IMG/VR virus record: IMGVR_UViG_3300009093_000042
Span: 1-64,000 of that record
DNA from: a virus
Lineage: Duplodnaviria > Heunggongvirae > Uroviricota > Caudoviricetes
Reading direction: 5' to 3' (one strand)
Length of the DNA stretch: 64,000 nucleotides
Both the position numbers and the translations under genes were made by a program. Of the stretch, positions 3,331-59,920 are shown in pieces. The stretch's first letter is position 1. Each line of letters opens with the position of its first letter. A model generated the notes under the pieces. The model did no database searches, was not told where the DNA came from, and saw only the letters and a list, made by a program, of their open reading frames with translations.

Positions 3331-3348
3331 AAATTGTAAACAATTTTT
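3331..3348 (-). promoter_or_regulatory. conserved palindromic promoter-like element
   Basis: AAATTGTAAACAATTTTT. It overlaps the TAA stop of the upstream gene. Confidence 0.5.
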
Positions 3349-3811: not shown

Positions 3812-4131
3812 TAGTCAACAATCAGAGTTTTTGAAACAGCGTATTCTCGAAAATCCGGTTTTGGTCGCTTCAGCACCATCTTGCGAAAATTGTCACCGTA
3901 CTCGCCTTCCTCCTCCCATTTCATGGTGCCTTCGGCCAGGCCGACGACGTTCCTGAAAAAGTCGATACCGTGCGTGGTGGACGTGGTCAGTCCGCGTGAA
4001 TACTTCTTCGAGAACCACATCTTCAGGTCCACGAACAGATCGGGGAAGCGCCACGGTGGGGCCAGGTTGAGGATGTGCTCGCACGCTTTTGCGCATTCGA
4101 GCATCGGGTCTGGCGGGGTGGATTCAGTCAT
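3811..4131 (-). CDS. hypothetical protein (trimmed to ATG at 4131)
   Basis: ATG at 4131 forms ATGA overlap with the stop of 4128..4355. GTAAACAT motif lies 4 nt upstream of the ATG. Confidence 0.4.
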   Translation of the reverse strand: MTESTPPDPMLECAKACEHILNLAPPWRFPDLFVDLKMWFSKKYSRGLTTSTTHGIDFFRNVVGLAEGTMKWEEEGEYGDNFRKMVLKRPKPDFREYAVSKTLIVD

Positions 4132-4355
4132 AAGATGTTTACGCTTTGAGCGAAGGTCAGCCTGCCCTTGGAGCGCCCGGTGATCTGGCGTGCGAATGCT
4201 TTTGTTACCAGGCCCTTCGACGTACGATCGAGAGCGATCCATTTCACTTCATTACGCACGTCGGTCATTGTGGGACATTGAAAAGCGCGCACCTGGTTGC
4301 GCTCGCCCGTTACCACAACGGACCAGTGCCCGACCTTATCGCTGTTGTCGATCAT
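4128..4355 (-). CDS. hypothetical small protein
   Basis: 75-aa ORF coupled by ATGA to the downstream gene. Confidence 0.4.
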   Translation of the reverse strand: MIDNSDKVGHWSVVVTGERNQVRAFQCPTMTDVRNEVKWIALDRTSKGLVTKAFARQITGRSKGRLTFAQSVNIL

Positions 4356-4786
4356 GCGCGCTCAAATGCGTGCCAGACGAGCCGACCGCCGAGCTGTTGA
4401 AATGTTCCGATGTAGCGACGATTGGCTTCTTCCGTAGGATTGCCTGTGCCGATGATCTCAATCTCCCGGCGCTGTTTCGGCGCTTTGGGATTAACCATTG
4501 CCCAGATGGCCGGGGTTTCGCCCTGTACTTGAACGGTCAGGATTTTTGCCCCCTCCGGCATCATCACGTTTTGGATGCCTGTTATTTCAAGAGGAAATTT
4601 CCAGATGGTTTTCGCATCGCCTGCGGGCGATTCTTCTTCCTGGTTCCAGAAATCACTGAGCCATTGCATCTCCTTGGAGTACATGTCGGCCCAAGTAGAA
4701 AGACCCGGCTGAGCGTCATCAAGCAGTGATTTGAGCCGGTTTACGTGCTCACGTATGGTATCGAGGTTTGGGGTGGATGAGTTCAT
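4352..4786 (-). CDS. hypothetical protein (144 aa)
   Basis: Minus ORF with 4-nt overlap to the next gene. Confidence 0.5.
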   Translation of the reverse strand: MNSSTPNLDTIREHVNRLKSLLDDAQPGLSTWADMYSKEMQWLSDFWNQEEESPAGDAKTIWKFPLEITGIQNVMMPEGAKILTVQVQGETPAIWAMVNPKAPKQRREIEIIGTGNPTEEANRRYIGTFQQLGGRLVWHAFERA

Positions 4787-4788
4787 AG

Positions 4789-5058
4789 TTAGGTTTCTTC
4801 AGTTTCTTCAGTTTTCATGGAAACGTCGGTTGGCGTTTCTTTTTCTTCGTGCTTGAGATCGCGGGCGTAGATCGCGTAATCGACACCTTGTTGCAGACCG
4901 ACGTGGTTGATGAACCCAGTCAGCACGGCGTCCACGATTTCCTGGGAAGGCGCTTCTTTCAGGTCGTGCATGTGGGAATTGCGCTGGTAGTGGTCTGCGT
5001 CCTTGCGGAATTGACGGGCGTTCTTCGTCAGCATCTCAAGCAGTTCTATCTTTGTCAT
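4789..5058 (-). CDS. hypothetical small acidic protein
   Basis: 89-aa ORF. Confidence 0.4.
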   Translation of the reverse strand: MTKIELLEMLTKNARQFRKDADHYQRNSHMHDLKEAPSQEIVDAVLTGFINHVGLQQGVDYAIYARDLKHEEKETPTDVSMKTEETEET

Positions 5059-5302
5059 GGTGTTCCTGGGCTTTCTGTTTTAGTTCCTTCACTGTTTTGG
5101 CGTGGGCCTTGAACCGGCCCTTCCAGAAAAGATCATATCCGTGCTCCGGCTTATGGATGCCGCGAAACGGTCGGCAATCCATGATCACGTACAAGCGGGC
5201 GAACCGCTTGCCGTAATACTGGCCGTCCTCCACCCAGTGGCGGTGCTGGTTCCGGCTGTAGCGCCAGTCCAGGGGTTTACTGCTTGGCGCGGTCTTCGAC
5301 AT
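5036..5302 (-). CDS. hypothetical basic protein (trimmed from ORF 5036..5569)
   Basis: Only the C-terminal 88 aa from ATG at 5302 look protein-like. The upstream part is low-complexity S/K/R and overlaps the ACP gene in another frame. Confidence 0.3.
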
Positions 5303-5531
5303 ACTTTTGGAGCTTCCCGAACGTCTGGAGCTTTTCCGCGTCCTCGTCCGAGATTTCGAAACCAAATTCTTCCTCAATGGCCATGAGGACTTCAACGGCG
5401 TCGAGGGAGTCCGCTCCGAGATCGTCAATGAAGTTGGTTTCGGGTTTGAGCTGCGATTCATCGACGCTAAGCTGCTCGACGATGACTTCTTTAAGGCGCT
5501 GTTCGACAGTTTTATTAGTAGAATTTGACAT
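5277..5531 (-). CDS. acpP: acyl carrier protein
   Basis: [22 protein letters not shown] is the canonical ACP phosphopantetheine-attachment motif (DSL). 84 aa and acidic. Promoter motif lies 9 nt upstream. Confidence 0.8.
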
Positions 5532-5535
5532 AGGT

Positions 5536-5553
5536 GAAAATGTTTACGTTTTG
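5536..5553 (-). promoter_or_regulatory. promoter-like element upstream of ACP gene
   Basis: Minus strand reads TTGACC-N17-CGTAAACATTTTCACCT-ATG. Confidence 0.5.
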
Positions 5554-5573
5554 TCTTTCGGTTGGTCAAGCGC

Positions 5574-5975
5574 TCATTGACGGGGTGGCCTCATTTTCTT
5601 TTCGGTCCACGCGGCGTGCATCCCGTCAACGTCCTTTTTCATTCTTTCCACGGTCTCATTGAGCGAGTCCATGGCGGCCTTCTGTGCTTTAGCGCGGTCG
5701 CCTTCAAGGAAATAAACGTTCCGTCCGACTTCATCTGGGCGATCGTACATGCGGACTCGGCGCACCTGCATGATCTCGTCCGCTTTCACGCGTTCGTGCA
5801 GGCCGACAGAAAATCCCTGCTGACGCAGCTCGTGCGTGACCATCTGCGGAAGGTAGTTTTTACCTGTGAACTTGACCGCGTACTTGCGGATGCTGGCTGC
5901 GATGCCAGTCGGATCGACCGCGACGACAAACTCGTACAGGGTGATGATTTCAGTTTTTGGCGCGGCGGTTTTCAT
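5574..5975 (-). CDS. hypothetical protein (133 aa)
   Basis: Minus ORF. Confidence 0.5.
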   Translation of the reverse strand: MKTAAPKTEIITLYEFVVAVDPTGIAASIRKYAVKFTGKNYLPQMVTHELRQQGFSVGLHERVKADEIMQVRRVRMYDRPDEVGRNVYFLEGDRAKAQKAAMDSLNETVERMKKDVDGMHAAWTEKKMRPPRQ

Positions 5976-6240
5976 CTTTCCATTTCAGGTATTTTTCCAA
6001 GTTTGCGATCCCGTCCAGCATGGCTTCACGGATCATCGTGTCATCACATCGACTGGCATCCCATTTCCATTTGGTTATGACGTGAGCCACATCTTCCAGG
6101 GGCTGAGTCTTGATCCAAGCCACGGCGCGCTTCACGTTGTGCATCGCCCACCAGAGGCGGACGCGCAGCACCGTGTAAGTCCAGAACCACACCAGGTGGT
6201 CACTCAACGACTTCCGCTTGTTCGATTTGCTTTTTATCAT
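5950..6240 (-). CDS. hypothetical basic protein
   Basis: 96-aa ORF overlapping both neighbours by 26 and 41 nt. Confidence 0.35.
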   Translation of the reverse strand: MIKSKSNKRKSLSDHLVWFWTYTVLRVRLWWAMHNVKRAVAWIKTQPLEDVAHVITKWKWDASRCDDTMIREAMLDGIANLEKYLKWKDENRRAKN

Positions 6241-6982
6241 TTTTCGGTACGGGTGGCAGCAGGGCGACTCCAGCCAGATTAGTAAGCGTCTGCATGATTC
6301 TCTCTGGCGTCAGGAACTCCGCCAGGCGCTTGCGCAGCTCGTCGATGCGCTTGGAAAATTCATCCAGGGCAGCACGATTCATCTCATTATCTTCGATGCA
6401 CGCGATGATTTTGCCGCCGCTATCCGTAAACGCGCCCGGCCAGACCTTGATTTTCATCTCGTGGCCGGACCATTCCTTCATGAGGAATTTTCCGTCCCAG
6501 GTGGTGCCGCGATAAACGCCCTTGTAGCTGAAGATGAGGCCGGTGCCGTCTCCGCCGCCCCAGGGGCGCTGCTGATCAATTTCTACCAGGAAGAAGTGTT
6601 CCCACTTCACTTCGAATTTTTTATCGAGCGCGCCCCACATTGCCTGGCGCAGGACTTCGATGTCAGTCCCCTCCATCTTGATGTCCAGTTCCTGGCAGAC
6701 CAGCTCAAAGCTCACGTTCCTGGTCGGATGCGGTGGTTCTTCAGACTGTTCAGTCTGTTTTTCCATGCGCAGCTCGATCTTGACGATTTTATTTTTGATG
6801 CGTTCTTTCCGGCGCTCATGCCGGTCGATGTGTTTGCGCTGGTCGCGTCCGCGCTCATCTTTGTCCTCGTCCTCGGGTGAGACGTAGTCCAGGCGCTCGA
6901 TCTCAACATCCTTGACTTTGTAAACCCAGGTGTCGATGAGCTTGTACGGGTTGTGACGAGACGATCCTAGTTCGCGTGGCAT
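6200..6982 (-). CDS. hypothetical protein (260 aa) with charged coiled-coil-like segment
   Basis: Long ORF containing a KDERGRDQRKHIDRHERRKERIK segment. Confidence 0.5.
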   Translation of the reverse strand: MPRELGSSRHNPYKLIDTWVYKVKDVEIERLDYVSPEDEDKDERGRDQRKHIDRHERRKERIKNKIVKIELRMEKQTEQSEEPPHPTRNVSFELVCQELDIKMEGTDIEVLRQAMWGALDKKFEVKWEHFFLVEIDQQRPWGGGDGTGLIFSYKGVYRGTTWDGKFLMKEWSGHEMKIKVWPGAFTDSGGKIIACIEDNEMNRAALDEFSKRIDELRKRLAEFLTPERIMQTLTNLAGVALLPPVPKNDKKQIEQAEVVE

Positions 6983-6985
6983 AAA

Positions 6986-7309
6986 TTAGCTTTTAGGGGT
7001 GAAGAACTGAGTCTGGGAAAAGTGGCAATGGCCGATGCGCCCTGGCCTGCCGACCGGACAGCCGAGCGTCCGGGCATGGTGTTCGCCCTTTACCTTTTTG
7101 CAGTGTTTGCACTTCACTGGCTTCGGGGCCAGGACACGAGGCTGAACGAGCGCGGTAGTGACTTCCTCAGCATCGCCGTAGTCGCCATTCTCTACAAATC
7201 TGACGAAGCAGTTGGTGCGTCCCATGCGGTAACTGACGAAAACACCGTTGCCACGGTTGGCGTGGGTGACGAGGTCGCCCGTCACGAATTGATGCTTCTT
7301 TTTTGCCAT
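6986..7309 (-). CDS. hypothetical protein (trimmed; ORF-track start 7315 is TTG)
   Basis: ATG at 7309 (MAKKKHQF...). Upstream intergenic carries the promoter motif and a terminator for the preceding gene. Confidence 0.45.
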   Translation of the reverse strand: MAKKKHQFVTGDLVTHANRGNGVFVSYRMGRTNCFVRFVENGDYGDAEEVTTALVQPRVLAPKPVKCKHCKKVKGEHHARTLGCPVGRPGRIGHCHFSQTQFFTPKS

Positions 7310-7335
7310 GCACAATACACTTACACTATTGACGT

Positions 7336-7354
7336 AAAATTGTAAACATTTTTT
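7336..7354 (-). promoter_or_regulatory. conserved palindromic promoter-like element
   Basis: AAAATTGTAAACATTTTTT, between the terminator of 7412..8431 and gene 6986..7309. Confidence 0.5.
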
Positions 7355-7360
7355 ATTACG

Positions 7361-7392
7361 AAAAAAGCGGCCTGGAATTGCTCCCAGGCCGC
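7361..7392 (-). terminator. rho-independent terminator after 7412..8431
   Basis: Minus strand GCGGCCTGG-GAGCAATT-CCAGGCCGC followed by TTTTTTCG. Confidence 0.7.
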
Positions 7393-7411
7393 TTGGTTTA
7401 ATCGAGTGATT

Positions 7412-8431
7412 TTAAGGAGCCGGATGGCCCGTCATCAGATCATTGGTGGTCATGCCGAACGCTTTCATCTGGTCTGCATCCATTTCCACCCACGGCTGGA
7501 CGGTGAAGGCTTTCTTGTTTACGAGCTGGCCAGCAATGTGCGGGCTAATGTCGTTGGTAGGTTGGAGGTAATTGCGGAAGTACAGCGGATACGGTTGATT
7601 GGTCGGGTAGGTCTTGAAGAAGACCGAGAAGCGCGCTCGCGTACCGTACAGCGGCGGATTGAGCGACGGATCATTCGTCCAGTTCACCGTATTTGTATTG
7701 CAGACGACATAACCGTAGTCGGTGAACAATTCCAAATGATTGGTCGGCTCCAACAGGTCTGTCGCGAGATGGTCGGTCGTGTTGGTGTTTGGTGTCAGGC
7801 CCCAGGTTGGCAGCGGCCAGGCCCAGTTGACGTAACCGTGGTACGTGCCGGGACAACCGCCAGAAGTGCCACCAATGAAACCGTTCGTGGCCGCGTGTAC
7901 CCACGCAACAAATCCCGGCTGCTGGACTGCCCGCCAGAATAAGTTTACGCCGGGGATGTTGGGGCCACCGACCATCTGCACGGTGTACTCGCTGTCGTTA
8001 GTCGTGCCGATGAAGATGCCGCCGAGATCATTCCAGTTGGTTGAACCGAGATCGGTTGTCCACTGAACGGTGTAGGCTCTCGTGGGGTCTGTGTTGGTTA
8101 CCGCGATGTTGTAGTAGAGATTTCCGTACGGGGCAGCCGTAGCAGCATCAAAGGGACTCGCGCCCGCGCTCACCAGTAGGTTGTTGCTGTCCACCATCCA
8201 GCCGTAGTTGGTGTACACCTGAACGAAGCCCGGTGTCAGAACGCTGGCCACGCGCACCAGCACGGCATCCAGCGGATACTCCTGAATGACTGGCGGTGGA
8301 TTGGTGTAAGGCGGACAATTCGTGCATGGTGGACAGTCCGGGCACGGTACCGGCTGAGCAGATGCGTTGATAGAAGTTACGGCGATCAGGGTAGCGACCG
8401 CCCCGGCAAATAGGTTTCGTAATTTAGTCAT
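7412..8431 (-). CDS. secreted Cys/Pro-rich protein with N-terminal signal peptide
   Basis: N-terminus MTKLRNLFAGAVATLIAVTSINASA, then PCPDCPPCTNCPPYTNPPP. Followed by a rho-independent terminator on the minus strand. Confidence 0.55.
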   Translation of the reverse strand: MTKLRNLFAGAVATLIAVTSINASAQPVPCPDCPPCTNCPPYTNPPPVIQEYPLDAVLVRVASVLTPGFVQVYTNYGWMVDSNNLLVSAGASPFDAATAAPYGNLYYNIAVTNTDPTRAYTVQWTTDLGSTNWNDLGGIFIGTTNDSEYTVQMVGGPNIPGVNLFWRAVQQPGFVAWVHAATNGFIGGTSGGCPGTYHGYVNWAWPLPTWGLTPNTNTTDHLATDLLEPTNHLELFTDYGYVVCNTNTVNWTNDPSLNPPLYGTRARFSVFFKTYPTNQPYPLYFRNYLQPTNDISPHIAGQLVNKKAFTVQPWVEMDADQMKAFGMTTNDLMTGHPAP

Positions 8432-8981: not shown

Positions 8982-10187
8982 TTATTTGAGGACGGGTGCC
9001 GGAGTGGTTGCCGGAGTAACCGCAGGCGTGGTCTTGACGCCGACCATCATCTGTTCGACGGAGTCCATGAAGCTGGACGTGAGCAGGTTCACTTTCATGT
9101 CCTGCGGCAGCCAGCCCTTCACGCCCGAGAACGCGGGTGCGACCTGCTTGGCGATCTCGATGCGGGCGAACACGTCGGCACCGGCCACGGCGTAGGATTC
9201 GAGCTTCAGCTTGTTGGCTTGGGCTTCGGCTTCACCACGGGCGAGAATACCCTTGGATTCGGCGATGTCGGCATCACGTTTGCCTTCGGCTTCCAGCACG
9301 CGTTTCTGCTGCTCGGCTTTGGCGGCGATGATTGCCTTTTCGTTGTCGGCTTCCGCTTTCAAGATGGTGACCTGCTTGTCCCGGTCAGCCCCCACGATCT
9401 GGGTGTTGGCGTCGGCCTGGGCTTTGGCTTTGGCCACCAGCGCTTCTGCTTCAGCGGCCTTCTGCTCCTCCACGGCGCGCAACTGGCGCTGCACCGCGAC
9501 CTGTTTGCCTTTGATTTCCTCGATGTATTTCGGGTCCAGGGCAATGTGCTCGACCACGAAATTTTCCACGATGATGCCGCGCTGAGGCAGCTCCGCGCTG
9601 GCCTGGTCCTGGCCTTTGCCTTGCAGCGCGTTCTGGATGTTCTGCTGGAGCGTCACGAGGCCGGAGCCGGAGTAGGCGTCAAGAGCTTTCATCTTGGTGG
9701 CTTCGTCTTTGACGACGCGCATCACGACCGGGCGAATCAGCTTTTCCTCAATGTCCGTGCGGACGGTTTTGTGGATGCTGACCAGGTTGGTCGGATTCAG
9801 CCGCCAGCGGATGTTCATCGAGATCGTCATGTCTTGGCCCTCCTGGGACTGCACCAGGTAGGCGTCAGTGGCGCGGCCTTCGCCCTTTTCTTCAGGCGTG
9901 GTGTTGTTATTCATCACGAAGATGCGCGAGGAGGCGTCGTACGTGATGATCTTCTGGCTCCAGGCAGGGATCAGAACTTGCAGGCCGGGCTGATAGACTT
10001 TGTCTTCGACGCCGTCGTGCCAGGTTTCCTTGATGCCGAGTTCATTGCCTTTGATCATCTTGTAGTTCACGCACTGCAAAAGCAGGAACATTACGATGAT
10101 GACGGCGATAGCGCCGCCGATTAGTTTTCGTGGATTCATATTGGATTCTTCTGTTTTTGGTTTGGTGGTCCTTCGTCGTGCTGTCAT
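8982..10187 (-). CDS. SPFH/band-7 (stomatin/prohibitin/HflK-like) membrane protein
   Basis: N-terminal TM anchor, then a band-7-like core (IRPVVMRVVKDEATK...GIIVENFVVEHIALDP) and an Ala/Glu/Lys-rich coiled-coil tail. ATGA coupling to the upstream small membrane gene. Confidence 0.65.
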   Translation of the reverse strand: MTARRRTTKPKTEESNMNPRKLIGGAIAVIIVMFLLLQCVNYKMIKGNELGIKETWHDGVEDKVYQPGLQVLIPAWSQKIITYDASSRIFVMNNNTTPEEKGEGRATDAYLVQSQEGQDMTISMNIRWRLNPTNLVSIHKTVRTDIEEKLIRPVVMRVVKDEATKMKALDAYSGSGLVTLQQNIQNALQGKGQDQASAELPQRGIIVENFVVEHIALDPKYIEEIKGKQVAVQRQLRAVEEQKAAEAEALVAKAKAQADANTQIVGADRDKQVTILKAEADNEKAIIAAKAEQQKRVLEAEGKRDADIAESKGILARGEAEAQANKLKLESYAVAGADVFARIEIAKQVAPAFSGVKGWLPQDMKVNLLTSSFMDSVEQMMVGVKTTPAVTPATTPAPVLK

Positions 10188-10429: not shown

Positions 10430-10470
10430 TTAATGTAAACAAAAGGACTTTAGCGCGGACAGCGCTGTCG
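10430..10470 (-). promoter_or_regulatory. promoter-like element plus small hairpin upstream of the SPFH operon
   Basis: AATGTAAACAAAAGG, then an AGCGCggacaGCGCT hairpin. Confidence 0.4.
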
Positions 10471-10908: not shown

Positions 10909-10926
10909 GAAAATGTAAACAATTTA
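10909..10926 (-). promoter_or_regulatory. conserved palindromic promoter-like element
   Basis: AAAATGTAAACAATTTAC in the intergenic region between 10948..11244 and 10496..10852. Confidence 0.45.
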
Positions 10927-12960: not shown

Positions 12961-12995
12961 GTGAAAAATGTAAACAATTTATTGTTGGTGTCAAT
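12961..12995 (-). promoter_or_regulatory. sigma70-like promoter with -35 TTGACA
   Basis: Minus strand TTGACA-N16-TACATT-TTTCAC-ATG. The core is AAATTGTTTACATTTTTCAC. Confidence 0.55.
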
Positions 12996-16070: not shown

Positions 16071-16087
16071 GAAAATGTTTACAAATT
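16071..16087 (-). promoter_or_regulatory. conserved palindromic promoter-like element
   Basis: GAAAATGTTTACAAATT, 4 nt upstream of the ATG of 15635..16066. Confidence 0.45.
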
Positions 16088-18299: not shown

Positions 18300-18349
18300 A
18301 CTCAGGATTGTAAACAATTACAGTCCAATGTCAATACACAAAGTGTATT
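18300..18349 (-). promoter_or_regulatory. promoter with -35 TTGACA, -10 TACAAT, near-leaderless start, plus upstream ATACAC-AAA-GTGTAT palindrome
   Basis: Minus strand CACTTTGTGTATTGACA-N16-TACAAT-CCTGAGT-ATG. Perfect 6-bp inverted repeat at 18335-18349. Confidence 0.55.
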
Positions 18350-20622: not shown

Positions 20623-20675
20623 GCCAGAAATGTAAACGAAATAGAATTGTTGTCAATACCCAAAGTGTAAATAGT
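20623..20675 (-). promoter_or_regulatory. promoter with -35 TTGACA, -10 TACATT, near-leaderless start
   Basis: Minus strand CACTTTGGGTATTGACA-N16-TACATT-TCTGGC-ATG. Shares GTATTGACA upstream context with the promoter at 18300-18349. Confidence 0.55.
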
Positions 20676-20744
20676 GAGAAATTTAATACCTCGTTGTAAG
20701 TGGCCTAACGACCGTAGTTAATGCGTGGTAATAGTGGATCGGGT

Positions 20745-20793: not shown

Positions 20794-20988
20794 ATGAAAT
20801 TTCGCTTAATAGCAGCACCGGTTGAGCGAGGGGACCTAAACAGGATTTTCTCTCTGTTCGAAGTCGCGCAATTCCTCGAAATAGCTGTTGAAGACCTGGC
20901 CCTGCGCGGAAAACTCTCGGGAAACGTCAGCCTGGATGGCTATACTTTCGAGGTTGTTCGCAGCGTGCAGGGTTCAAGTTTCAAATAG
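20794..20988 (+). CDS. hypothetical small protein (plus strand)
   Basis: GGAG sits 5 nt upstream of the ATG. Preceded by a strong GC hairpin. Convergent with the HerA-like gene. Confidence 0.25.
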   Translation: MKFRLIAAPVERGDLNRIFSLFEVAQFLEIAVEDLALRGKLSGNVSLDGYTFEVVRSVQGSSFK

Positions 20989-22734
20989 CGTTGCGCTGGC
21001 TCGGATTCTCAGCTCGCGATCCTGTTCCATCAGGTCGGGAGCGCGCAGGGCTGTTAGCGCGTTTCCAAACGTGCTGGAGTTCACGCTGTATCCCGTCGCG
21101 TCTGAAATCTCCTGGCGCGTGGCAAACTCCGGGAAGCGCGTCAGCAGGTAACTGAAAATCTTTCCCGCTGCGCCGCTCAGCTTATTCACCCAGAGATTTC
21201 TCAGAGCTTCACCTTTTGGCAACGGTTCAAAGTTTTTCAACAGGGCGCGAGCCTCGGGTATTGCAGTCAGCGTGTCGCCGCTGCGGATGATCGCGTTGTT
21301 TTTGGAAAGCTCGGTCAGCCCGTTGCCGAACGTGCTTGAAGTCACGCTGTAGCCGGATAGAAGCGCGGCCTGGCTGCGGGTCCGCCCTTCGGGATAACTG
21401 AGCAGCACGGTCAGAATCGCTGACGCACACTTGGAAAGTCCACCCGAGGATGGATCATGCACCGGCGATGAAAAATCGTGCCGAGTGGCGACAACTGGAG
21501 CCGGGATCGCCTTGGGTGCTACCGGTGTCGCAACCGCCATACTCGTCTTCTGGATCACGATCAATTTGTTTACAATATCGGTGCGTAGCGCTACCGCCTG
21601 ATTGGCCAGCTCAGAGAAGTTCACCACCGTCTTGCTGAAAGTAGTGCAGGCTTCCTCGATTCGCTTCAGAGTTTTTTCCTGCTCGGGCGTTAGCACGGGA
21701 ACTTCGACCTTTTCGATTCGCGTGTCCACGACCGTCACCGGCCTGGGCGCGACAGCGGCCTGTTCCGCTTTTACCAGCTTTTGTTTCAAAACAGCCACTT
21801 GTTGTTTCAAATGGGCCGGATCATTCTCGTTGGCGCGCTCAATCGTTTCACGAATCTCATTTCCCAGGCGCACGAGATCGACCTTGGCCAGCTTTTGCGG
21901 GATGATGACTTTTTCACCTGCCTTGGGCGTGGCTGATGAGTTGAAGGTCCGGCGCTGCCGGATGGTGATCCGTTGAAAGATGCGCAGCCAGCCGGGCGAC
22001 CATATCCAGCCCTCGCCGGTGTGAAGCGATGCCAGGGACTGCATCATGATGTCGCGCTGTTCCTTCGTGCCGTTGCGCTTCACCCAATCGTCGATGGCGT
22101 CCTGGTCCTGGGGCGAGTTGAGCTGAAGTACGATCAACAGTTCGGTCTGAGTGAAGACATTCTTATTGAGCACAGCCGGGCGCTGCGTGATCAGCGTCGT
22201 GCCAATCCCACGGATGCCTCCCCGGCGCACCAGGGCTTCGAAGGCTCCGAGCATTCGCTGCTGGCCGTCCTGGGGTTTCTGGGGAGCGAAAGAGTCGGCT
22301 TCGTCCACGAACAGGTGCAGCGGATTGCGGTTTTGATTTTTACGCCGGTAGAGGCGTTCGGCAAAGTCAGTGGCGAAGCGATCCTGCTGTGCGTTGCTTT
22401 CGGTCGAGGAGAGGTCGATGACGTAGTAGCCAGGATGGTCAACCACCATGTCGGCGATGACCCGGCCTGCCGTATATTCCAGTGGAACGTCCGCGTGCTC
22501 ACCGCCGATGATCACCACTGGCAAACCTTCGCGCAGACCGTTTGCTGATGAACGCAGGCCCCACCAGGCACCGGTCGGATCGAGCACGGCAAACGGCTGT
22601 GACGCCGCCACCAGCTCCTCGGCGATCACCGATCCTGTGTAGGTCTTACCGACCCGGCGCATGGCCATGATGGAACACGTCTGGGTGACGAAATCCAACG
22701 GCAGCGTCAGTTCCTTTGAGATTTTGAGGCTCAT
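20974..22734 (-). CDS. HerA/FtsK-superfamily P-loop NTPase (DUF87-like) with tandem C-terminal winged-helix-like repeats
   Basis: Walker A MAMRRVGKTY, AVLDPTGAWWGL, Walker B LHLFVDEADSF, and GIRGIGTTLITQRP. Two C-terminal repeats GYSV(T/N)SSTFGN(G/A)LT. Confidence 0.6.
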   Translation of the reverse strand: MSLKISKELTLPLDFVTQTCSIMAMRRVGKTYTGSVIAEELVAASQPFAVLDPTGAWWGLRSSANGLREGLPVVIIGGEHADVPLEYTAGRVIADMVVDHPGYYVIDLSSTESNAQQDRFATDFAERLYRRKNQNRNPLHLFVDEADSFAPQKPQDGQQRMLGAFEALVRRGGIRGIGTTLITQRPAVLNKNVFTQTELLIVLQLNSPQDQDAIDDWVKRNGTKEQRDIMMQSLASLHTGEGWIWSPGWLRIFQRITIRQRRTFNSSATPKAGEKVIIPQKLAKVDLVRLGNEIRETIERANENDPAHLKQQVAVLKQKLVKAEQAAVAPRPVTVVDTRIEKVEVPVLTPEQEKTLKRIEEACTTFSKTVVNFSELANQAVALRTDIVNKLIVIQKTSMAVATPVAPKAIPAPVVATRHDFSSPVHDPSSGGLSKCASAILTVLLSYPEGRTRSQAALLSGYSVTSSTFGNGLTELSKNNAIIRSGDTLTAIPEARALLKNFEPLPKGEALRNLWVNKLSGAAGKIFSYLLTRFPEFATRQEISDATGYSVNSSTFGNALTALRAPDLMEQDRELRIRASATLFET

Positions 22735-25127: not shown

Positions 25128-25188
25128 TGAGTGAAAAATGTAAACAATTTTTTGCTTACGTCAACGACGAAGTTCGTTCTTTAAGGAT
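25128..25188. promoter_or_regulatory. divergent intergenic region with a single palindromic motif serving the minus lipoprotein gene and the plus gene 25189..25449
   Basis: GAAAAATGTAAACAATTTTTT. Minus strand reads TTGACG-N16-TACATT-TTTCACTCA-ATG. The plus gene has an AAGGA SD. Confidence 0.5.
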
Positions 25189-25817: not shown

Positions 25818-25824
25818 ATTTTAA

Positions 25825-26517
25825 CTACGCGAACTGCACGACGGCGATGTCGCTGATCTTGAAAACCGGATTCGTATGGTTCCAGTTGATGTTCAGGTGA
25901 TCGAGCACGCCATAGGTGCTTTCTCGCATAATTCCCCAGTCATTTAATGGGGTAAAGCTGTGGCCTGCCAACGAGGCTATTTCATTCACCACTTGGGCGT
26001 CAAAAGTGGCCTTATCAACATCAGTGCAGGCGGTGTCGGTATTTCTGAAAAGCTGGATGTGCCAGTCAGGATTGCCTTTGATGATGTCCACGAAGAACAG
26101 TGTGCGGTTAGCATCTGTTGCTCCGATGTTCCACGTGCTCGGCTCCAAATCTCCGCCGCCGCCCGTTCCGGCCAGTAGAACACCGTTCCCCCATTCTTCA
26201 GCCGCTCCAAAGGAACAGCCGTAGCGTGTCGGCCCGGTGGCCCGAACGAACGTGTTGAAATTGCCCACCATGTTTGCTCCAAAAAAGTGCGTCGGAGCTA
26301 AGCCGGAATCACCAAAGATGCTGGTATCTCCGGTGCAGATGCCTACGTGAAGACTGCACGAACTTACATCTGCGCCCGAGTCAGCCATGCACAAGCGCAT
26401 TCCGATCCGCAGCTTTTGCCACGTGCTGTTGAGCATGAAAAACGGCTGGCGAGCGAACCGACTGGCATCAAGAATGAGCCGATTCTCGCCGCTAATGCTG
26501 GAAATGATGGCGGACAT
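25825..26517 (-). CDS. virion-associated protein, tandem paralog A
   Basis: About 60% identical to 26521..27207 (MSAIISS.GENRLILD.SRFARQPFFM ... KISD.AVVQ.A). Confidence 0.55.
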   Translation of the reverse strand: MSAIISSISGENRLILDASRFARQPFFMLNSTWQKLRIGMRLCMADSGADVSSCSLHVGICTGDTSIFGDSGLAPTHFFGANMVGNFNTFVRATGPTRYGCSFGAAEEWGNGVLLAGTGGGGDLEPSTWNIGATDANRTLFFVDIIKGNPDWHIQLFRNTDTACTDVDKATFDAQVVNEIASLAGHSFTPLNDWGIMRESTYGVLDHLNINWNHTNPVFKISDIAVVQFA

Positions 26518-41591: not shown

Positions 41592-41604
41592 AAATGTTTA
41601 CAAA
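41592..41604 (-). promoter_or_regulatory. promoter-like motif filling the 13-nt gap between stop and start
   Basis: Minus strand TAA-TTTGTAAACATTT-ATG. Confidence 0.4.
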
Positions 41605-46688: not shown

Positions 46689-49600
46689 TCAGTGATATAC
46701 CAAAAATGGATTCGTGACGAAATCGCGCTGGAGGAAGTAAATGTCCCCGCTCGAATAGTCGATGGCGATGGAGCTGATATTCGCTCCCGTCGTGAACTCA
46801 CACACAATGGTTTTTCCGACCGGGTCGATCACCGTGACTTCGCCATTCTGGGCCGCTGCAATGATCAGTCCCGACACCGGGTTGTACTTGACATAAACTT
46901 TGTTGAAGACGTTGGAGACGTTCGTGAACGTGTCCACCACAGCGTAGGTGTTGGGATCGAACGAAACAATCGGGTTCGTTGATCCGTCCACCAGGCAGAA
47001 GTAAACCAGCCCTGTCGCCGGGACATAATCCACTTCAAAGTTCGAGTTGACCAGGAAGCTGTTGTTGTTGAGGGTCAGCGCAGGGAGCGCATAAAACAAC
47101 GTGGAGTTGGTCGGCTTCAGGATCAACTGACCAGGCAATCCGAATACGCCGGGCGTTGTTGCAGCAGAAATGGTCGTGGCAACGTCGTTGGTGATCGTGT
47201 TAGTGTGCGGGTCGATCTCGATGATGTGGATTTTGTGATCGCTGTTATTTCCCGCCACGCCGTATATCTTGTCCTGCGCCGCGCTGTAGTAGTAATTCGT
47301 GAGGAAGAACGAGTTGACTGGTTGACCGATCTCAGTGACCACGTTTCCACTGGTGTCGAATACCAACACACCTGCGGACCCGGTGACGAAGAACGTTTGG
47401 GTCGTCGGTGCAAAGGCGCTTCCATCACCGTCCATGTCCCATTCCACGTCGCACGCTGTTTGGGCGAGGACAGTGTTGGTCGATGAGTCGATGAACGTCA
47501 TGATTCCATCATTGGACCGCGTGACGCCGATGATTCTCACTGCGGCATTACGGCTCATCAGGATTTCGCCGTCAACGTTTCCAGTATTATCGAATTGTGT
47601 CACGAACACCGGACACGTCGGCGTGGGCGGAGCGGGCGAGGAGGAGCATGGACTCATAATGGTTCCGTAGGTTACGAAAGCAGGCAGCGTTCCGTCAGAC
47701 ACGGTGAACGATCCATTGAGGATAATGTCTTCGGTCCGATAGGACGTGGTTGCGGTTAGTTTGTTTGAAAACGGCTGAGGATTGCTCAGCGTGTCGTTGG
47801 AGCTGTAAATCTGTGACTCGTGCTGATAGCCGTAGGCCGTTCCCCAACTGCTCATGGTCGCCATCCAGCCGCCCGGAGTGGTTGGATAATCGGTGCCGGA
47901 GGTACCGAACTTCGTGGTCACGACGGAGCCTGCGCCGACTGTCAAACGATACAGTGACGTGTGGAATCGAGTGAGATTCACTTCGCTGATGAACAACTGG
48001 CGCGCCGTTCCCTTCTGGTTGTCACGGATGGCATTGCTCCAGTCAAACAGCAACAGCCAGGAACTCGGGCTGCCGGGCAGTGTGTGCGGCAGATAGAAAT
48101 CGAACGTGTCGGTCTGGCTGAAGTTCGCGCCGGTCTGGTCTGCACAGAGCTTGCCCTGGAAGACGATGTCGCCAACCGTGATGACCACGTTGAACCCAAC
48201 GAAGCTCGTATCGACTTTGCCGATGTTGCCAGACGTGACGCTCAATCGGTAAAAGCCGGGGAGCATCTGGTTGTTGATCTCGAACGCGATTTGGCCGTTG
48301 TTCTTCAGCGCCACCACTGGAGGCGTCTGGGCCAGGCCGAACGTGTTGGGCTGCACCCACGCGTTCACCGTGTTCGTCCCGGACAGGTCAATCACCGTTT
48401 CCTCATTTGCGTAAAGATAGATCGGCGCTGAGGTCGCGGTGCCGGTGTAGGTGCCTGAGTAAACCACGCCGCTGGTATTGACCGAGAGCTGTTTGTGCAG
48501 CGTTGCATCGCTTAGTTCCACTTCCGCGCCAGTCGGCTGGTACGACCCGTTCAAGCTGAAAATCTTTTCCGTGACGAAGGACACGTTTCCGGCCTCGGTG
48601 TTGGCCAAACTGATCTGCCAGACAAAGCCGTCGTCCCCCTTTCTCCAGATGCGATCTCGGCAGGGGTTGGTGGCTTGCAGGGGATTGGGCCACGGAGAGC
48701 CAGTGCCGGTCGAGGCGAGGGTGCCTGCGATGCCAGAGATGGTGCTGCCACTTTCGATCAGCGTCAGCACAAAGCCTGACGGATTGTCAAAGAGCCAGAC
48801 CTTGTTGACGCCAGGATAGTTTCCCTGCCAGGTGGACACTGCCACCGTCCCGTCCGCCGTGAGGGTGTCCCAGACACTTCCCAGAACTTGTTTTGGAGGC
48901 AGCGTGTTGCCGCCGCCTACGCCGGTTTCTTTGTAGCGTGATTGCGCGTCGTAGCGCGCCAGGTAATCGTAGCGCTGAACCCACGCGAGATTGTCCGTAA
49001 TGATCGAAGTGGGCAGTTGGTCAGGGATCACGTAACCGCTCGGCAGCACTTTGACTGCGTAGTGATCGTACGTGTTGACCGATTGCAACCACGTGGGCCG
49101 GTAAAGGCAGGCGGTTGGGCTTGGATTGTGATAGCGCGCCAGCGTCAATTCGTCCTGGGCTTTCGTCACATTCCACAGGCGCAGGTCCTGGATGTCAAAA
49201 GGCGAATTCTGGCAGCTCACTGTCAGATGGTACGGCGTTTCAAAGTCGATCAAGCTGGTCACTGAGATCGTTTGCACCGTGAGGCTGCCGGTCGAGTTCC
49301 AGTAATAAACCGTGAGCGTTTGAACGCCGTCGAATGACCACGCGAAGTAGCTCCATTTCTGGTCGAACACCTGGAACGCTTTGAGATTCACCGTCCCATC
49401 AGAGTAGGTCAGATAGAAATTCAAACGAGGCGTCGTGATTGCTCCCGAGAGTGTGATCTTCAGCGGGCCGGACAAAAGGATGGTCTGTTCGCTGGTGTAG
49501 CTGTTCAAGCCGCGAATCCAGAAACCACCGGAGAACATTTGGCCGAAGCCACGGGCCACCGGGCTGTTCAATAGCAATCCCGGTTGAGCTGCGAGATAAT

Positions 49601-51989: not shown

Positions 51990-52009
51990 GCTTTAACTAC
52001 GCGACCGGC

Positions 52010-54598
52010 TTAACTGACATAGATTTTTCGACCTTTGGCGATGAACCAGGTCGAACCGGCGTTTCCGTAGGTGGTGGAGTAAAGCCGATAGAGCTTTCCG
52101 TTAAAAGCAATTCTGTAACCGGTGTTGAGTTTTGCCCCGTAACCGGTGGCCGTTTGCTGAAGTCCCCGTTTCTGCCATGGTGTCGGATCGTGAATCAATT
52201 CCTTTCGGTCCGCATAAATCCGTGGAAATTGACCGTTGGGAGAAGTTTCCACGTCCGCATCAGTAAAAAGCTTGTAACCATTTCCGTCGCTCGCAACGTC
52301 TTTGGCATCGTCAGCTTCCGCCTCCTCGTCGAACCCTTCCTGCACTTGAGCCAGCTTTCCGTGATACAGGCTGCCTTTGGGCAACGCGGTGGCTTCGTCA
52401 CTGTAGGCTTCTTCATCGAGCAACGGTTGAAGTCCCGAAAACCAGAATTCCACAATGTGGCCATCCGGCAGCACCGCATTGAACAAATCCTCGTCAGCCC
52501 GCCCCCACCACTTGCTGTTCTCGGCCAGGACGTGCATCGCGGCAGCAACGTTGTGACCGTCGCCCAGGGGCGTTAGGAGGATGTCGAGGTCTTTTTCTGA
52601 TTCACCGTGCCGATCCACACTTCCGACGATTTCTGCTTCATAGCCTACCGCTTCCAGCGCCGGGCGAACCATTTGAAGCCACGTTTCCGCCTGCTGGCGC
52701 GTCCACGGTGTAGCTTCATGCGTTCCCGGAGCTTTATTAGCCGTGTAGTCAGAAAGAGAGGACTCTCCAACAGATTTTGAAGCGTTCATCATGTACTGAT
52801 AAGCGTACTTCAAAAATTGCTTTTGGTTTTCCGGGGTTAAGCTATTCCAGAAAACTGGACGACTCGACGGTGACTGTAAAATTTTCATCGCTCCGTCAAA
52901 GCCGTGTTTTTCTATTTTTCTTGCAATAAAACCCTTGGCAAAAGCCATCACTTCATGAGGATCGTTGAAATAGCCTTTTTCGCGAAAATCCGGCTTCTGC
53001 TTTTGTTTATGATAGCTGGCCACCATCTTAGGAATGCTGCCCGGTCTCATGCGGCCCATCTGGCCTCGGTGTACAAGTTCATGCTGGATCATCCGCCGCA
53101 GATAGGATAGGAGGGTATCATCATTGCCTCGGGCCATCCATTGCGGCATACGGATGAGGATTCGGTTATGCACGAAGCCAAAAGCGGCGGCGGGAGAGCT
53201 GGACGGGAGAAAGCTTAATTCTTCCGTTTTCACTTTTTTCAGCGCACTCAGCCAGTTAATTTTTCCTTCGCTGTTATCAACTTCCTGCTGAGCTTTTTTA
53301 ATCTGCTGGAGAGCGAGCTGAGAAAGCCTTTCCACTTCTTCCTCTTTGGGTTCCACAACGTCTTCTGTGATCTGTTCCATCTCGATGTTTGGCTTACCGA
53401 GAAACAGTTTCGTTTTGGCTTTAGTTAGGCTGCTGAAGATCACAGACTTCACCAGGAATCGGGCATTGGTGTGCTCATCTGGTGCCATGAGGCGTTTGCC
53501 AACCAACTCGCGGCAGGTGCCCTTGGTCACGTAGGCCACGGTCATGTGCGGGTGGTATTCCGGGTACGTGTCCGTGCATTCCAGTTCCGCACTGATGCGA
53601 GCATTCAATTTGAAAAGCCCTTCGCCGGAGATGTCGAATTTCACCACATCGAACTTCTCATTTTCAAACAGCGAGATTGCTCCCACTTCGATCTCGAACG
53701 GCTCGGTTTGTTCGATGATCTTCAGAAGTTCCGGGCTTGGGTCTTTTTCGTGGAGTCCGAATTTAACCGTCACGTGGACTTCGTCCTCGCGCCCAAAACC
53801 CTCCGGGTCCTCCGGGTCGGTGTAGAGCTTATCGTCGGTGATGAACATCCGGCTGAACTGCTGCACTGCGTCCACGATGTCTGGCGACGCCGGGGCCATG
53901 ACACAGGAAAACTTCCGGGCCTCCATGATGCTCTCGATCTGCGCGTCCACGCCGCCCTGGTCGGGGTAAAGCCATTCGCTCAGCATCTCAGGAGTAATCC
54001 TTTCGACAATGCCGGAGGTATCGACCGCCTGATCAGCGCCAGTATCTTCAAACCATTCCGCGCCGCTCATATCGCGGGCGTCTTCAAACAGACCGCGCAA
54101 GCGCTCGTCTTCAATGAACTCCTCGTCGAGATCGGGAAACTTTTGCTTCAGGTTGACGAGGAATTCCTGGCGGTAGTGGTGCTTCCAGGCTTCGTCGCGT
54201 TTCAGCGATTCCACTGTGCGGTATTCTTCTTCGTCCAGCAGGCCGGAGGTTTTCAGCTTCTTGATCTGTTCGAACAGGCTGGCCGCCATGTCCGAATCCA
54301 ACTGGCCGAGTGACGATTCCGGTATGCCGACGATGACTGCGTTGAAGTTGGGGCCGGTGCTTGGGACGATGACGGGATAGTTCTTGATGAGGTAGCGGGC
54401 GTTGGCGCGGTCGGCGGTGTTGCCGGTATAGTCACTGAACTCGACGAGCTTCCAGACTTTGTGCTCGGGATCGTAAATCAGATTCTCATCCAGGAAGGCG
54501 CGCACTTTTTCCGGGTCCACGTCCCGAAGTTCACGCATGAAATCCGCGCTTTCTTGGTCGTCGCTTTCAATCAGTCGCCGCTTGGTAAGGTTTTTCAT
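52010..54598 (-). CDS. multidomain protein with 2H phosphoesterase (LigT-like) signature, HExxH motif and Pol-beta-type nucleotidyltransferase motif
   Basis: EVHVTVKFGLH and HPHMTVAYV form a pair of H-x-T-x motifs. MIQHELVHRGQ is the HExxH motif. IVGSVDRHGESEKDLDILL is a G[SG]..DhDh NTase motif. Confidence 0.6.
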   Translation of the reverse strand: MKNLTKRRLIESDDQESADFMRELRDVDPEKVRAFLDENLIYDPEHKVWKLVEFSDYTGNTADRANARYLIKNYPVIVPSTGPNFNAVIVGIPESSLGQLDSDMAASLFEQIKKLKTSGLLDEEEYRTVESLKRDEAWKHHYRQEFLVNLKQKFPDLDEEFIEDERLRGLFEDARDMSGAEWFEDTGADQAVDTSGIVERITPEMLSEWLYPDQGGVDAQIESIMEARKFSCVMAPASPDIVDAVQQFSRMFITDDKLYTDPEDPEGFGREDEVHVTVKFGLHEKDPSPELLKIIEQTEPFEIEVGAISLFENEKFDVVKFDISGEGLFKLNARISAELECTDTYPEYHPHMTVAYVTKGTCRELVGKRLMAPDEHTNARFLVKSVIFSSLTKAKTKLFLGKPNIEMEQITEDVVEPKEEEVERLSQLALQQIKKAQQEVDNSEGKINWLSALKKVKTEELSFLPSSSPAAAFGFVHNRILIRMPQWMARGNDDTLLSYLRRMIQHELVHRGQMGRMRPGSIPKMVASYHKQKQKPDFREKGYFNDPHEVMAFAKGFIARKIEKHGFDGAMKILQSPSSRPVFWNSLTPENQKQFLKYAYQYMMNASKSVGESSLSDYTANKAPGTHEATPWTRQQAETWLQMVRPALEAVGYEAEIVGSVDRHGESEKDLDILLTPLGDGHNVAAAMHVLAENSKWWGRADEDLFNAVLPDGHIVEFWFSGLQPLLDEEAYSDEATALPKGSLYHGKLAQVQEGFDEEAEADDAKDVASDGNGYKLFTDADVETSPNGQFPRIYADRKELIHDPTPWQKRGLQQTATGYGAKLNTGYRIAFNGKLYRLYSTTYGNAGSTWFIAKGRKIYVS

Positions 54599-55448: not shown

Positions 55449-55456
55449 TGCCGTAA

Positions 55457-55699
55457 CTACGTTTCTCTGGAAGTCCGTGAGACCCTTGATCTCGCTAGGA
55501 GAGATTCAAAGAACTCCTGGGCCAGTCGGCAGGCGCAGGTAGGATGGTTCTTTTGAACTTCCTCTGCGCAGTCGATGCAGACCACCAGGACTGTTTCCAA
55601 ATCACTGAACTTGAGAGCGACCGCTTCTGACACTGGAACAGCGTTACGACATTTGTCGCATTTCAGCTCCGGTCTTCCGAATTCATTTTGCGTAAGCAT
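55457..55699 (-). CDS. zinc-ribbon small protein
   Basis: CDKC...CIDC...CAC pattern. A hairpin lies just upstream of its start. Confidence 0.45.
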   Translation of the reverse strand: MLTQNEFGRPELKCDKCRNAVPVSEAVALKFSDLETVLVVCIDCAEEVQKNHPTCACRLAQEFFESLLARSRVSRTSRET

Positions 55700-58556: not shown

Positions 58557-58576
58557 AAAAAAGTAAACAAATTATT
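58557..58576 (-). promoter_or_regulatory. conserved promoter-like element upstream of helicase gene
   Basis: Minus strand TAA-TTTGTTTACTTTTTTGG, then a 20-nt leader to the ATG. Confidence 0.45.
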
Positions 58577-59900
58577 TTGCTGGAGGCTCAGGAGTGGGGA
58601 TAATCTTTCTGAGCTGTTCGATCACATCCGCTGGACCGACAGCGCCCAGACACTCGCAAATTTGGCGGTCTTTGCGCGGCGGGCAGTATCTCGGGAACGT
58701 ACCCGCGTAAGCGAAGCACGGTGAAAATTGGCAGACTTCCTTTTTCCACACCGGGAAGTGATTTTTGTAGTACTTCACGCGGTTCATGGGATTGCACGGA
58801 CCCCAGAGGCCGACGCAAGGCGTTTCCAGCGACCCGGCGATGTGGACCATCATCGAGTCTGGACCGATCACGACCGCTGCCCGGCTGGCCACGGCCCATA
58901 GCTCGCGCAGGCTGGCCGCCTGGTAAATCTGGATGTTGTGCCGGAGGGTGCCGGAGCCTTTGCACTTGGGACAAATTTCTTGCTTTTTCCTGCCTGCTGC
59001 GGCGATGGACTCAGTGGCTTTCGTCACTTCGGCCAGGGCCTTGTCCGCTGATACGTTCGCCATGTCGTGTACGATCGGCACGGGCGGCGGTTCGACCACG
59101 TTGGATTCAAGGCGGCCCTTGCCGTTGCATTTCTGGCATTCGACGGCCTTTCGGTACTGTTCGGGAACGAACTTGTCGTAGAGTGCCAGCCAGTGAACGT
59201 TCGGGTAGGCTTCCGCGACTTTGCTCAGCAGGTAGGCGCTTTCGTTGGGCGGCATACAGCGCACCGGGTTGGCCGCTGAGAGTTGGTACATGCCGATGGG
59301 TTTTCCCTGGAACTGCATGGCGGCCTGCATCTCCAGGAAGGTGAAGTTCGGGTGATAGACTTTTAGTTTCGGGTCCACTGCGTCCGGGTTGATGCCGACG
59401 CGCCGGAGCATTTGGTCGAGCGGATGGAGCTGATCCACATGTTCTTCGGCATTGACGACAGTCTCGAAAATCACCCAGTAATCGTACATCTTAAACTGCT
59501 CGTACTGGATGGGGATGTTTTGGATGGACTTAACGAAAGGCATGTTCCACCAGCAGCTCACGTTGCCGGGATCGACCAGCACGTGGACTTCAAAGCCGTA
59601 GGACGCGAGGATGCGCGCAAACGGCCAGGTCATCACCTGGTCGCCGTAGCCGCCGCTGCCGTTGTAGAGTAGCAGCTTCTGGGTGCCGGGCTTCTTCGCG
59701 TTTGCGTTGAAATTGGGAATGCGGTTCTCGATGCGGCTCCACTTAAAGAGCCGGTCTTTCACTTCTTCCTTCGCGATCATGCGGTTGAAGTGAGATGCGG
59801 CGATCACGTAATCACGCCCGGCTTCGAAGACCATGTTGGTCGCGCCTGCGGATTTTTCCATCGTCAGTGAAACGTGTTCTGCAAAAGTGACAAGATTCAT
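58572..59900 (-). CDS. GT9-family (heptosyltransferase-like) glycosyltransferase with zinc-ribbon insertions
   Basis: IGPDSMMVHIAGSLETPCVGLWGPCNP matches the GT9 C-terminal D..H.A....P.V.LFGP motif. CQKCNGKG and CPKCKGSG inserts. ORF-track start 59906 is TTG, trimmed to ATG at 59900. Confidence 0.55.
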   Translation of the reverse strand: MNLVTFAEHVSLTMEKSAGATNMVFEAGRDYVIAASHFNRMIAKEEVKDRLFKWSRIENRIPNFNANAKKPGTQKLLLYNGSGGYGDQVMTWPFARILASYGFEVHVLVDPGNVSCWWNMPFVKSIQNIPIQYEQFKMYDYWVIFETVVNAEEHVDQLHPLDQMLRRVGINPDAVDPKLKVYHPNFTFLEMQAAMQFQGKPIGMYQLSAANPVRCMPPNESAYLLSKVAEAYPNVHWLALYDKFVPEQYRKAVECQKCNGKGRLESNVVEPPPVPIVHDMANVSADKALAEVTKATESIAAAGRKKQEICPKCKGSGTLRHNIQIYQAASLRELWAVASRAAVVIGPDSMMVHIAGSLETPCVGLWGPCNPMNRVKYYKNHFPVWKKEVCQFSPCFAYAGTFPRYCPPRKDRQICECLGAVGPADVIEQLRKIIPTPEPPAK

Positions 59901-59920
59901 GCCCAAAAGAACACGAACAA

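Follow-up and report, generated by a model that had tools for sequence, protein, structure and literature searches.

What does an acyl carrier protein (ACP) do in a tailed phage? The question is raised by a short open reading frame (ORF) in a 64,000-nucleotide stretch of viral DNA (positions 1 to 64,000 of the IMG/VR record IMGVR_UViG_3300009093_000042, Caudoviricetes), which is referred to here, at its full length, as the window. A first, sequence-only reading had described the product of this ORF as an acidic ACP of 84 residues with a DSL phosphopantetheine-attachment motif and a promoter of its own. It had proposed that the protein uses or decoys the acyl transfer of the host, and had seen in it, together with a glycosyltransferase-like gene, a hint of an action on the host envelope or lipopolysaccharide (LPS). 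We followed up these proposals using family profiles, structure prediction, related loci and estimates of selection. It was found that the ORF encodes a genuine AcpP-like carrier of the housekeeping type which, judged from its pattern of substitutions, is kept under purifying selection. On balance, we consider it probable that this carrier acts through the enzymes of the host. The coordinates of the features discussed are collected in Table 1.

The ORF encodes an acyl carrier protein of the AcpP type

As read from the sequence, the ORF begins with an ATG at position 5531 and ends with a TAA at 5279-5277, on the minus strand, which the sequence-only reading had not given. Its product has 84 residues and a pI of 4.18 (4.05 for E. 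coli AcpP), with 21 Asp or Glu against 9 Lys or Arg residues. Residues 41–44 form a DSLD motif (D41-S42-L43-D44), in which Ser42 is aligned with Ser36 of E. coli AcpP; the attachment serine is thus residue 42 of the phage protein.

When the product was compared with family profiles, the PP-binding model of Pfam (PF00550) scored 58.3 bits, the cutoff being 20.8. Two NCBIfam models for ACP were exceeded as well, namely TIGR00517 acyl_carrier (94.7 bits; cutoff 70.45) and NF002148 (103.8 bits; cutoff 71), and two narrower equivalogs fell just under their cutoffs (NF002149, 95.1 vs 106; NF002151, 89.4 vs 92). PHROG 5934, annotated 'acyl carrier protein', matched over 78 of its 93 profile positions with E = 3.5e-22. 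A sequence search of the solved structures in the PDB returned 112 ACP sequences, the best being the Aquifex ACP 2ehs (E = 7.5e-24). The phage protein is 55% identical to the latter and, over 71 residues, 49% identical to E. coli AcpP. Specialised carriers (DltC, AcpXL, NodF, and the carriers of polyketide synthases (PKS) and nonribosomal peptide synthetases (NRPS)) were also considered and were rejected, since only the housekeeping-type ACP models exceed the NCBIfam cutoffs.

The residues by which an ACP is recognized are retained. In the docking segment of helix II, DSLDxVExxMAxEEEF, every position is identical or conservatively replaced relative to E. coli AcpP, and an alignment with 57 homologues showed the helix II and recognition positions to be near-invariant. 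The acidic docking positions E47, E53, E54, E55, D62 and E66 are kept, as are the hydrophobic positions of the acyl pocket (F34, I60, A65, L68, Y77 and V78).

The sequence-only reading had named a structure prediction lacking the four-helix ACP fold as an outcome that would speak against it. The AlphaFold2 (AF2) model, with a mean predicted local distance difference test score (pLDDT) of 89, gave that fold, with helices at residues 9-21, 42-56, 62-67 and 71-83 and with Ser42 opening helix II. The top 50 Foldseek matches of the model were all ACPs, the best being again the Aquifex protein, with template-modelling (TM) scores of 0.86/0.96 and a root-mean-square deviation of 0.7 Å. MukBEF and iron-sulfur cluster assembly (ISC) complexes containing ACP were also among the matches. 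The Pfam, NCBIfam, PHROG and PDB matches, far beyond chance, and the predicted fold bear out the assignment: the ORF is a genuine housekeeping-type AcpP-like acyl carrier protein.

The gene is a settled part of a jumbo-size phage genome

That the carrier is encoded by a phage is equally well borne out by its surroundings. The window carries a terminase large subunit gene (20974..22734), and its other phage families include a tail fibre, a tail protein, a baseplate wedge, a tail tube, a Hoc-like decoration protein, endonuclease VII and a DNA helicase. It has 55% GC and about 75-80 ORFs, nearly all on the minus strand and with minimal spacing. Most of the proteins have no Pfam match, and no tRNA gene was found in the 64 kb. 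An identical ACP is recorded on a contig of 245,196 bp, and an identical ACP with the same gene neighbourhood occurs on an independent Logan contig of 12.6 kb (L001) that lies within the window.

Per codon, a single gene in the window exceeds the ACP gene in codon-usage score. The ACP gene is hence a settled one in this phage, and its score speaks against both contamination and very recent transfer. No nucleotide match to the window was present among 50,697 deposited phage records. Homologues of the 164-aa protein at the left edge of the window are found on contigs of 150-205 kb that have no other gene in common with it. The source is an uncultured, poorly sampled tailed phage of jumbo size. 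The top bacterial matches of the ACP are scattered over Bacillota, Acidobacteriota, Verrucomicrobiota and other groups, and point to no host.

No partner enzyme is encoded near the carrier

Genes for an acyltransferase or a synthase had been proposed as the companions to look for. In a Pfam screen of every ORF of the window (about 80), covering 64 kb of the 245-kb genome, no ketosynthase (KS), acyltransferase, reductase, dehydratase, thioesterase, adenylating enzyme or phosphopantetheinyl transferase (PPTase) was detected. Similarly, the precomputed Pfam calls within ±10 kb of the ACP gene in two related loci, L013 and L014, include no fatty-acid synthase (FAS), PKS, acyltransferase, AMP-ligase or PPTase. 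The association with fab genes that is typical, though not obligatory, of the AcpP family is therefore not seen, either in the window or in the ±10 kb around the ACP of these relatives.

The same arrangement is found in cultured phages. The ACP genes of RP13, PhiXhv-15, Bajun and BCSR5 are likewise orphans amid hypothetical genes, and no neighbour is common to the present locus and either the cultured-phage ACP loci or the two nearest IMG/VR matches. A search of IMG/VR with the ACP alignment returned 492 ACP-encoding stretches. Among the 241 nearest-neighbour ORFs at 64 non-redundant loci, two were FabG-like, one FabD-like and one KS-like; the remainder were ordinary phage genes or unknowns, and no recurrent partner family was present. 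Orphan status is the norm for phage ACPs.

Some individual neighbours in this set may be recorded here. Among the immediate neighbours at the IMG/VR loci L030-L109 are two NifU_N proteins and one IscA-type Fe-S_biosyn protein, which recall the complexes of ACP with cysteine desulfurase in Fe-S cluster assembly. Another immediate neighbour of a viral ACP in the same range of loci is a Tad3 Thoeris inhibitor. The PADLOC defence models gave no match to the present ACP or its neighbours.

The carrier was probably captured once and is conserved

Orthologues in a similar neighbourhood were found in other samples, with identities to the ACP of 74% (L002-L004), 67% (L005), 63-65% (L013) and 57% (L014). 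The DSLD motif is invariant in the five related phage lineages, i.e., this one and four other uncultured ones. The ratio of nonsynonymous to synonymous substitution rates (dN/dS) ranged from 0.08 to 0.20 for the pairs with unsaturated dS, which indicates at the sequence level that the ACP is kept under purifying selection.

A neighbour-joining tree was built from 64 sequences, comprising 7 related phage ACPs and 57 bacterial and metagenomic homologues. The phage ACPs formed one clade of exactly 7. Such monophyly indicates that the gene was captured once and has since been inherited vertically. The ACP is 60-71% identical to assorted bacterial AcpPs, as against 41-52% to the ACPs of cultured phages; the capture would therefore be independent of that in those phages. 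Taken together, the tree and the identities indicate one capture, in the common ancestor of a small group of large, uncultured tailed phages.

The carrier probably acts through host enzymes

Since no PPTase and no acyl-ACP-using enzyme is visible nearby, the ACP most likely acts through the host. The model is drawn from the intact serine, acidic docking helix and hydrophobic pocket, the purifying selection and the absence of any such enzyme beside the gene, and on balance it is the one we favour. According to it, an AcpP would have been captured once by the ancestor of the clade and then retained under purifying selection. Its gene belongs to a run of small, closely spaced genes that resembles an early or host-takeover region, and is probably served by a host-type promoter of its own. 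Host AcpS would convert the phage protein to holo-ACP on Ser42, and the acidic helix II would dock on type II enzymes of the host (FabD, FabH, FabF, FabG, FabZ, FabI, Pls and Lpx). We infer that the supply of acyl chains would in this way be sustained or redirected during the long infection of a jumbo phage. With no partner enzyme encoded nearby, use or decoying of host acyl transfer, as first proposed, seems the most reasonable class of explanation.

Some points weigh against this model. The window covers 64 kb of a 245-kb genome, and a PPTase or an acyl-ACP enzyme may be encoded in the other ~180 kb. Literature searches gave no experiment showing phosphopantetheinylation of a phage ACP or an effect of one on lipids. 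Moreover, the constant company of a basic 88-aa protein, described below, hints at a role more specific than generic supplementation.

Within the same class, the protein might serve as a decoy or inhibitor: an over-produced mimic of AcpP could titrate host AcpS, FabD, PlsB or ACP-binding regulators such as SpoT, so that host lipid synthesis or the stringent response would be shut down or rewired, instead of acyl chains being supplied. We regard this as unlikely, although the fully kept docking surface of helix II is what such a mimic would present, and the location in an early-type region, the strong-looking -35 element and the lack of partner enzymes in the Pfam screen are all in keeping with it. 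In E. coli, growth is inhibited by an excess of apo-ACP, and SpoT, MukB and IscS are among the proteins bound by AcpP; both facts count for a decoy, as do the ACP-containing MukBEF and ISC complexes among the fold matches. However, the positions of the acyl pocket are preserved along with the serine, and a pure decoy would not need the pocket. Because the pocket is conserved, supplementation or redirection of the acyl supply is ranked first and the decoy second.

A carrier dedicated to a pathway of the phage itself, with enzymes encoded outside the window, appears distinctly unlikely. Such a pathway might acylate virion or host molecules, or yield a small product of polyketide or lipid type. 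The source contig extends for about 180 kb outside the window, a few viral contigs do carry an ACP beside FabG-, FabD- or KS-like genes, and prophages with fabG-acpP-fabF have been described (PMC8224337). On the other hand, the best family matches of the protein are housekeeping AcpP equivalogs, not specialised carriers; no such enzymes lie within ±10 kb of the ACP here or in L013 and L014, and orphan ACPs are the rule in phages.

A basic 88-aa protein is a candidate partner

The gene downstream of the ACP encodes a basic protein of 88 residues, and its ATG lies 26 nt within the 3' end of the ACP gene. The pI values of the two products are opposite, 10.0 for the 88-aa protein and 4.2 for the ACP. 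Among 5.8 billion proteins, the family of the 88-aa protein comprises only 4 clusters, and each member follows an ACP at a distance of 0-2 genes, also in those relatives in which the 133-aa gene, located upstream of the ACP in the window, has moved. DUF7352 was not found near the ACP in some relatives, and the pairing of the 88-aa protein with the ACP holds there too. The dN/dS of the 88-aa protein is 0.12-0.17, which points to purifying selection. The predicted structure (pLDDT 80) has five strands followed by a C-terminal helix, and no informative fold match was obtained for the model.

These observations allow a further interpretation, by analogy with complexes in which an ACP is a structural subunit. 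The captured AcpP might be repurposed as the scaffold, docking or regulatory subunit of the translationally coupled 88-aa protein, the two forming a co-translated host-takeover effector that targets a host process, and the ACP would then no longer be simply an acyl carrier. The 26-nt overlap, the opposite charges, the linkage that persists despite shuffling of other genes and the purifying selection on both proteins speak for such a module. But all carriers of the pair belong to one phage clade, and the linkage may be historical; we give the module a slim chance. The 88-aa protein is a lead and not a finding, and as a candidate partner it is the sole fresh lead of the present analysis.

Directly upstream of the ACP, a basic protein of 133 residues is encoded. 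Its family is unannotated and widespread and has no Pfam model; clustering at 50% gives 52 representatives, which are about 125-135 aa long. In L005, L013 and L014 the 133-aa gene lies downstream of the ACP. A functional link between the 133-aa protein and the ACP is improbable.

The glycosyltransferase-like gene does not support a role in LPS

The gene at 58572..59906 (minus strand) had been likened to LPS-core glycosyltransferases of family 9 (GT9). Its product has a partial match to Pfam Glyco_transf_9 of 35.8 bits, above the gathering score, which covers about 60 residues of the C-terminal domain (profile positions 168-233 of 247). With the NCBIfam models for heptosyltransferases I, II and III and for RfaQ it scored 20-22 bits, the cutoffs being 134-467, and no sequence match was found among the solved structures of the PDB. 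A weak match to a DnaJ-type CXXCXGXG zinc finger was also observed in this protein. The gene lies 53 kb from the ACP. As it directly adjoins a DNA helicase gene (ResIII/DEAD, 56731-58542, minus strand), a DNA- or nucleotide-related role seems as likely as a role in the envelope.

GT9 heptosyltransferases take ADP-heptose, not acyl-ACP. A joint remodelling of host LPS or envelope by the ACP and this protein is hardly tenable: the above-threshold partial match and an SPFH/Band_7 membrane protein 3.5 kb from the ACP can be cited for it, but the likeness spans some 60 residues and falls far under every heptosyltransferase cutoff, the gene stands 53 kb away beside a helicase, the window holds no lipid A acyltransferase of the Lpx type, and neither L013 nor L014 has a Band_7 gene near its ACP.

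A promoter-like element precedes the ACP gene

On the minus strand, the sequence ahead of the ACP gene reads TTGACC-N17-TAAACA-TTTTCACCT-ATG, and the element ends 9 nt before the ATG. Both hexamers are kept in L002-L004, where five spacer positions are changed. L005 lacks the element ahead of its ACP gene, which there directly follows the preceding gene. Its -10 region overlaps a copy of the motif TGTWWACATTT (5538-5548). In both orientations together, this motif occurs 24 times in the window against 1.9 expected, and with few exceptions a copy is found shortly ahead of the start of a minus-strand gene. For three other genes, the motif forms TTGACA/G-N16-TACATT ending 6-9 nt ahead of the ATG, and at a fourth site TACAAT stands 7 nt ahead of an internal ATG.

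Shine-Dalgarno sequences are nearly absent, with about 7 weak AGGA, GGAG or AAGG matches upstream of about 77 ORFs of the window, which suggests that the host or the phage uses a mode of translation not reliant on such pairing. The placement of the motif close to the ATGs, together with this scarcity, suggests host-type promoters giving leaderless mRNAs, one of them serving the ACP. The TGTWWACATTT sites are probably a class of such promoters, and it is plausible that the element ahead of the ACP gives a leaderless or nearly leaderless mRNA. The earlier claim that the ACP has its own promoter is plausible. The conserved hexamer pair with its over-represented motif argues for it, but a strict scan of positions 4000..7500 for the sigma-70 consensus found 0 sites, and the relaxed -35/-10 pattern as a whole was not enriched in the window (12 observed vs 10.3 in shuffles).

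Other motifs and starts were noted during these scans. The motif CGTTCTTT had been spotted upstream of several starts; it was set aside, as the exact 8-mer is not significantly enriched (6 vs 3.2 expected). Another 8-mer, CGTAGTTA, has 4 matches against 0.28 expected, at 25822-25829, 51994-52001 and 55454-55461 on the minus strand and at 20713-20720 on the plus strand. Three of these four copies closely precede genes on the minus strand of the structural region, and CGTAGTTA may be a second class of regulatory motif, perhaps of middle or late genes. Two program-made TTG starts, 18317 and 3343, are likely to be misplaced: at both genes a promoter-like -35/-10 pair stops 7-8 nt short of an internal ATG, located at ~18299 and ~3304, respectively. 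The call on the Logan contig (127 aa) agrees with the internal ATG of the latter gene.

Other features of the window

Going upstream from the ACP gene on its own strand, the terminator-like hairpin listed in Table 1 is the first transcription stop to be met, with no other terminator in between. The hairpin comes after the gene of a 339-aa protein with a signal peptide and is itself followed at once by a TGTWWACATTT copy, marking a clear boundary between transcription units. The SPFH/Band_7 protein mentioned above is a membrane-scaffold protein of 401 residues (8982-10187, minus strand; Pfam E = 1.8e-19) that has a transmembrane segment at its N-terminus.

Table 1. Features of the ACP locus and of the window, with the evidence on which each was assigned
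Feature	Position	Strand	Basis
ACP gene, AcpP type, four-helix bundle	5277..5531	minus	family profiles, alignment, AF2 model, Foldseek, dN/dS
Ser42 codon, predicted 4'-phosphopantetheine attachment serine	5406..5408	minus	sequence, alignments, helix II N-terminus in the model
88-aa basic protein, candidate ACP partner	5036..5302	minus	gene called in L001; family linkage; dN/dS
Promoter-like element: TTGACC (5569-5564), 17-nt spacer, TAAACA (5546-5541)	5541..5569	minus	relaxed pattern, conservation
133-aa basic protein directly upstream of ACP	5574..5975	minus	family with 52 representatives
Intrinsic-terminator-like hairpin, strong	7365..7394	minus	13-bp stem, 8 GC pairs, T run
TGTWWACATTT sites (near)	874-887, 3332-3345, 5538-5551, 7338-7351, 10431-10441, 10911-10924, 12966-12979		motif scan
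TGTWWACATTT sites (near), continued	16073-16083, 18309-18319, 20628-20638, 25136-25149, 41592-41602, 58559-58569		motif scan

Elsewhere in the window, the largest ORF (1766 aa, 46689-51989, minus strand) has no Pfam or PHROG match and stands among tail- and fibre-like genes. An 862-aa protein (52010-54598, minus strand) contains an internal domain like 2H phosphoesterases and 2'-5' RNA ligases (Pfam 2.3e-9; PHROG 'RNA ligase'), and its C-terminal 60 residues match PHROG 3436. One ORF of the window has a weak Pfam match (E = 9e-4) to the Acb2/Tad1 hairpin domain, the fold of anti-CBASS and anti-Thoeris sponges.

Comparison with known carriers

Compared with the bacterial AcpP family (TIGR00517/PF00550; E. 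coli, Aquifex 2ehs), the phage protein has the same length class, acidic pI, DSLD motif, four-helix bundle and acyl pocket. It differs in lying outside a fabD-fabG-acpP-fabF operon and in a 6-residue N-terminal extension. Its gene is flanked by genes for small proteins without a known function and runs, at the 3' end, into the 88-aa basic ORF.

The proposed pairing of an acidic ACP with a small basic protein has a counterpart in mitochondria, where ACP is a scaffold or regulatory subunit for LYR-motif proteins. The analogy concerns the ACP/88-aa pair only. The 88-aa protein is a predicted five-stranded sheet with one helix, unlike the three-helix LYR fold, and the two have no similarity in sequence or fold.

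Among phages, the closest comparison is with the members of PHROG 5934, which likewise are orphans in large phages, stand among small hypothetical genes and retain the attachment serine. Phage ACPs of this kind are annotated in Ralstonia RP13, Xanthomonas PhiXhv-15, Brevundimonas Bajun, Burkholderia BCSR5, Prochlorococcus P-HM2, Vibrio helene/eugene and Erythrobacter vB_EliS-R6L. From the ACPs of cultured phages the present one differs in its identity of 41-52%, in belonging to a separate uncultured clade, and in having no neighbouring gene in common with them. With the fabG-acpP-fabF genes carried by Rhodobacteraceae prophages (PMC8224337) it has in common an AcpP-type ACP on a viral sequence, but no Fab enzyme is present here, and in IMG/VR at most 2-3 of the 64 ACP loci have the ACP beside Fab-type genes.

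The novelty implied by the sequence-only reading was thus overstated, as phage ACPs are catalogued in PHROG 5934, in many large phages and at 492 IMG/VR loci. Their function has been called unclear (PMC5463345), ACP modules have been listed as putative auxiliary metabolic genes in jumbo phages (PMC13573597), and one study has predicted an interface between a phage ACP and host FabZ (bioRxiv 10.64898/2026.03.01.708874). The ACP described here is another member of this catalogued, functionally uncharacterised class. It does not change the known picture, in which the borrowing of AcpP by phages to influence host lipids is already a hypothesis in the literature. Orphan ACPs recur in large phages and at hundreds of IMG/VR loci; to these the present locus adds a cleanly conserved case under purifying selection, as judged from dN/dS, in a poorly sampled clade of jumbo phages, and its 88-aa candidate partner and probable leaderless early promoter provide concrete handles for experiments.
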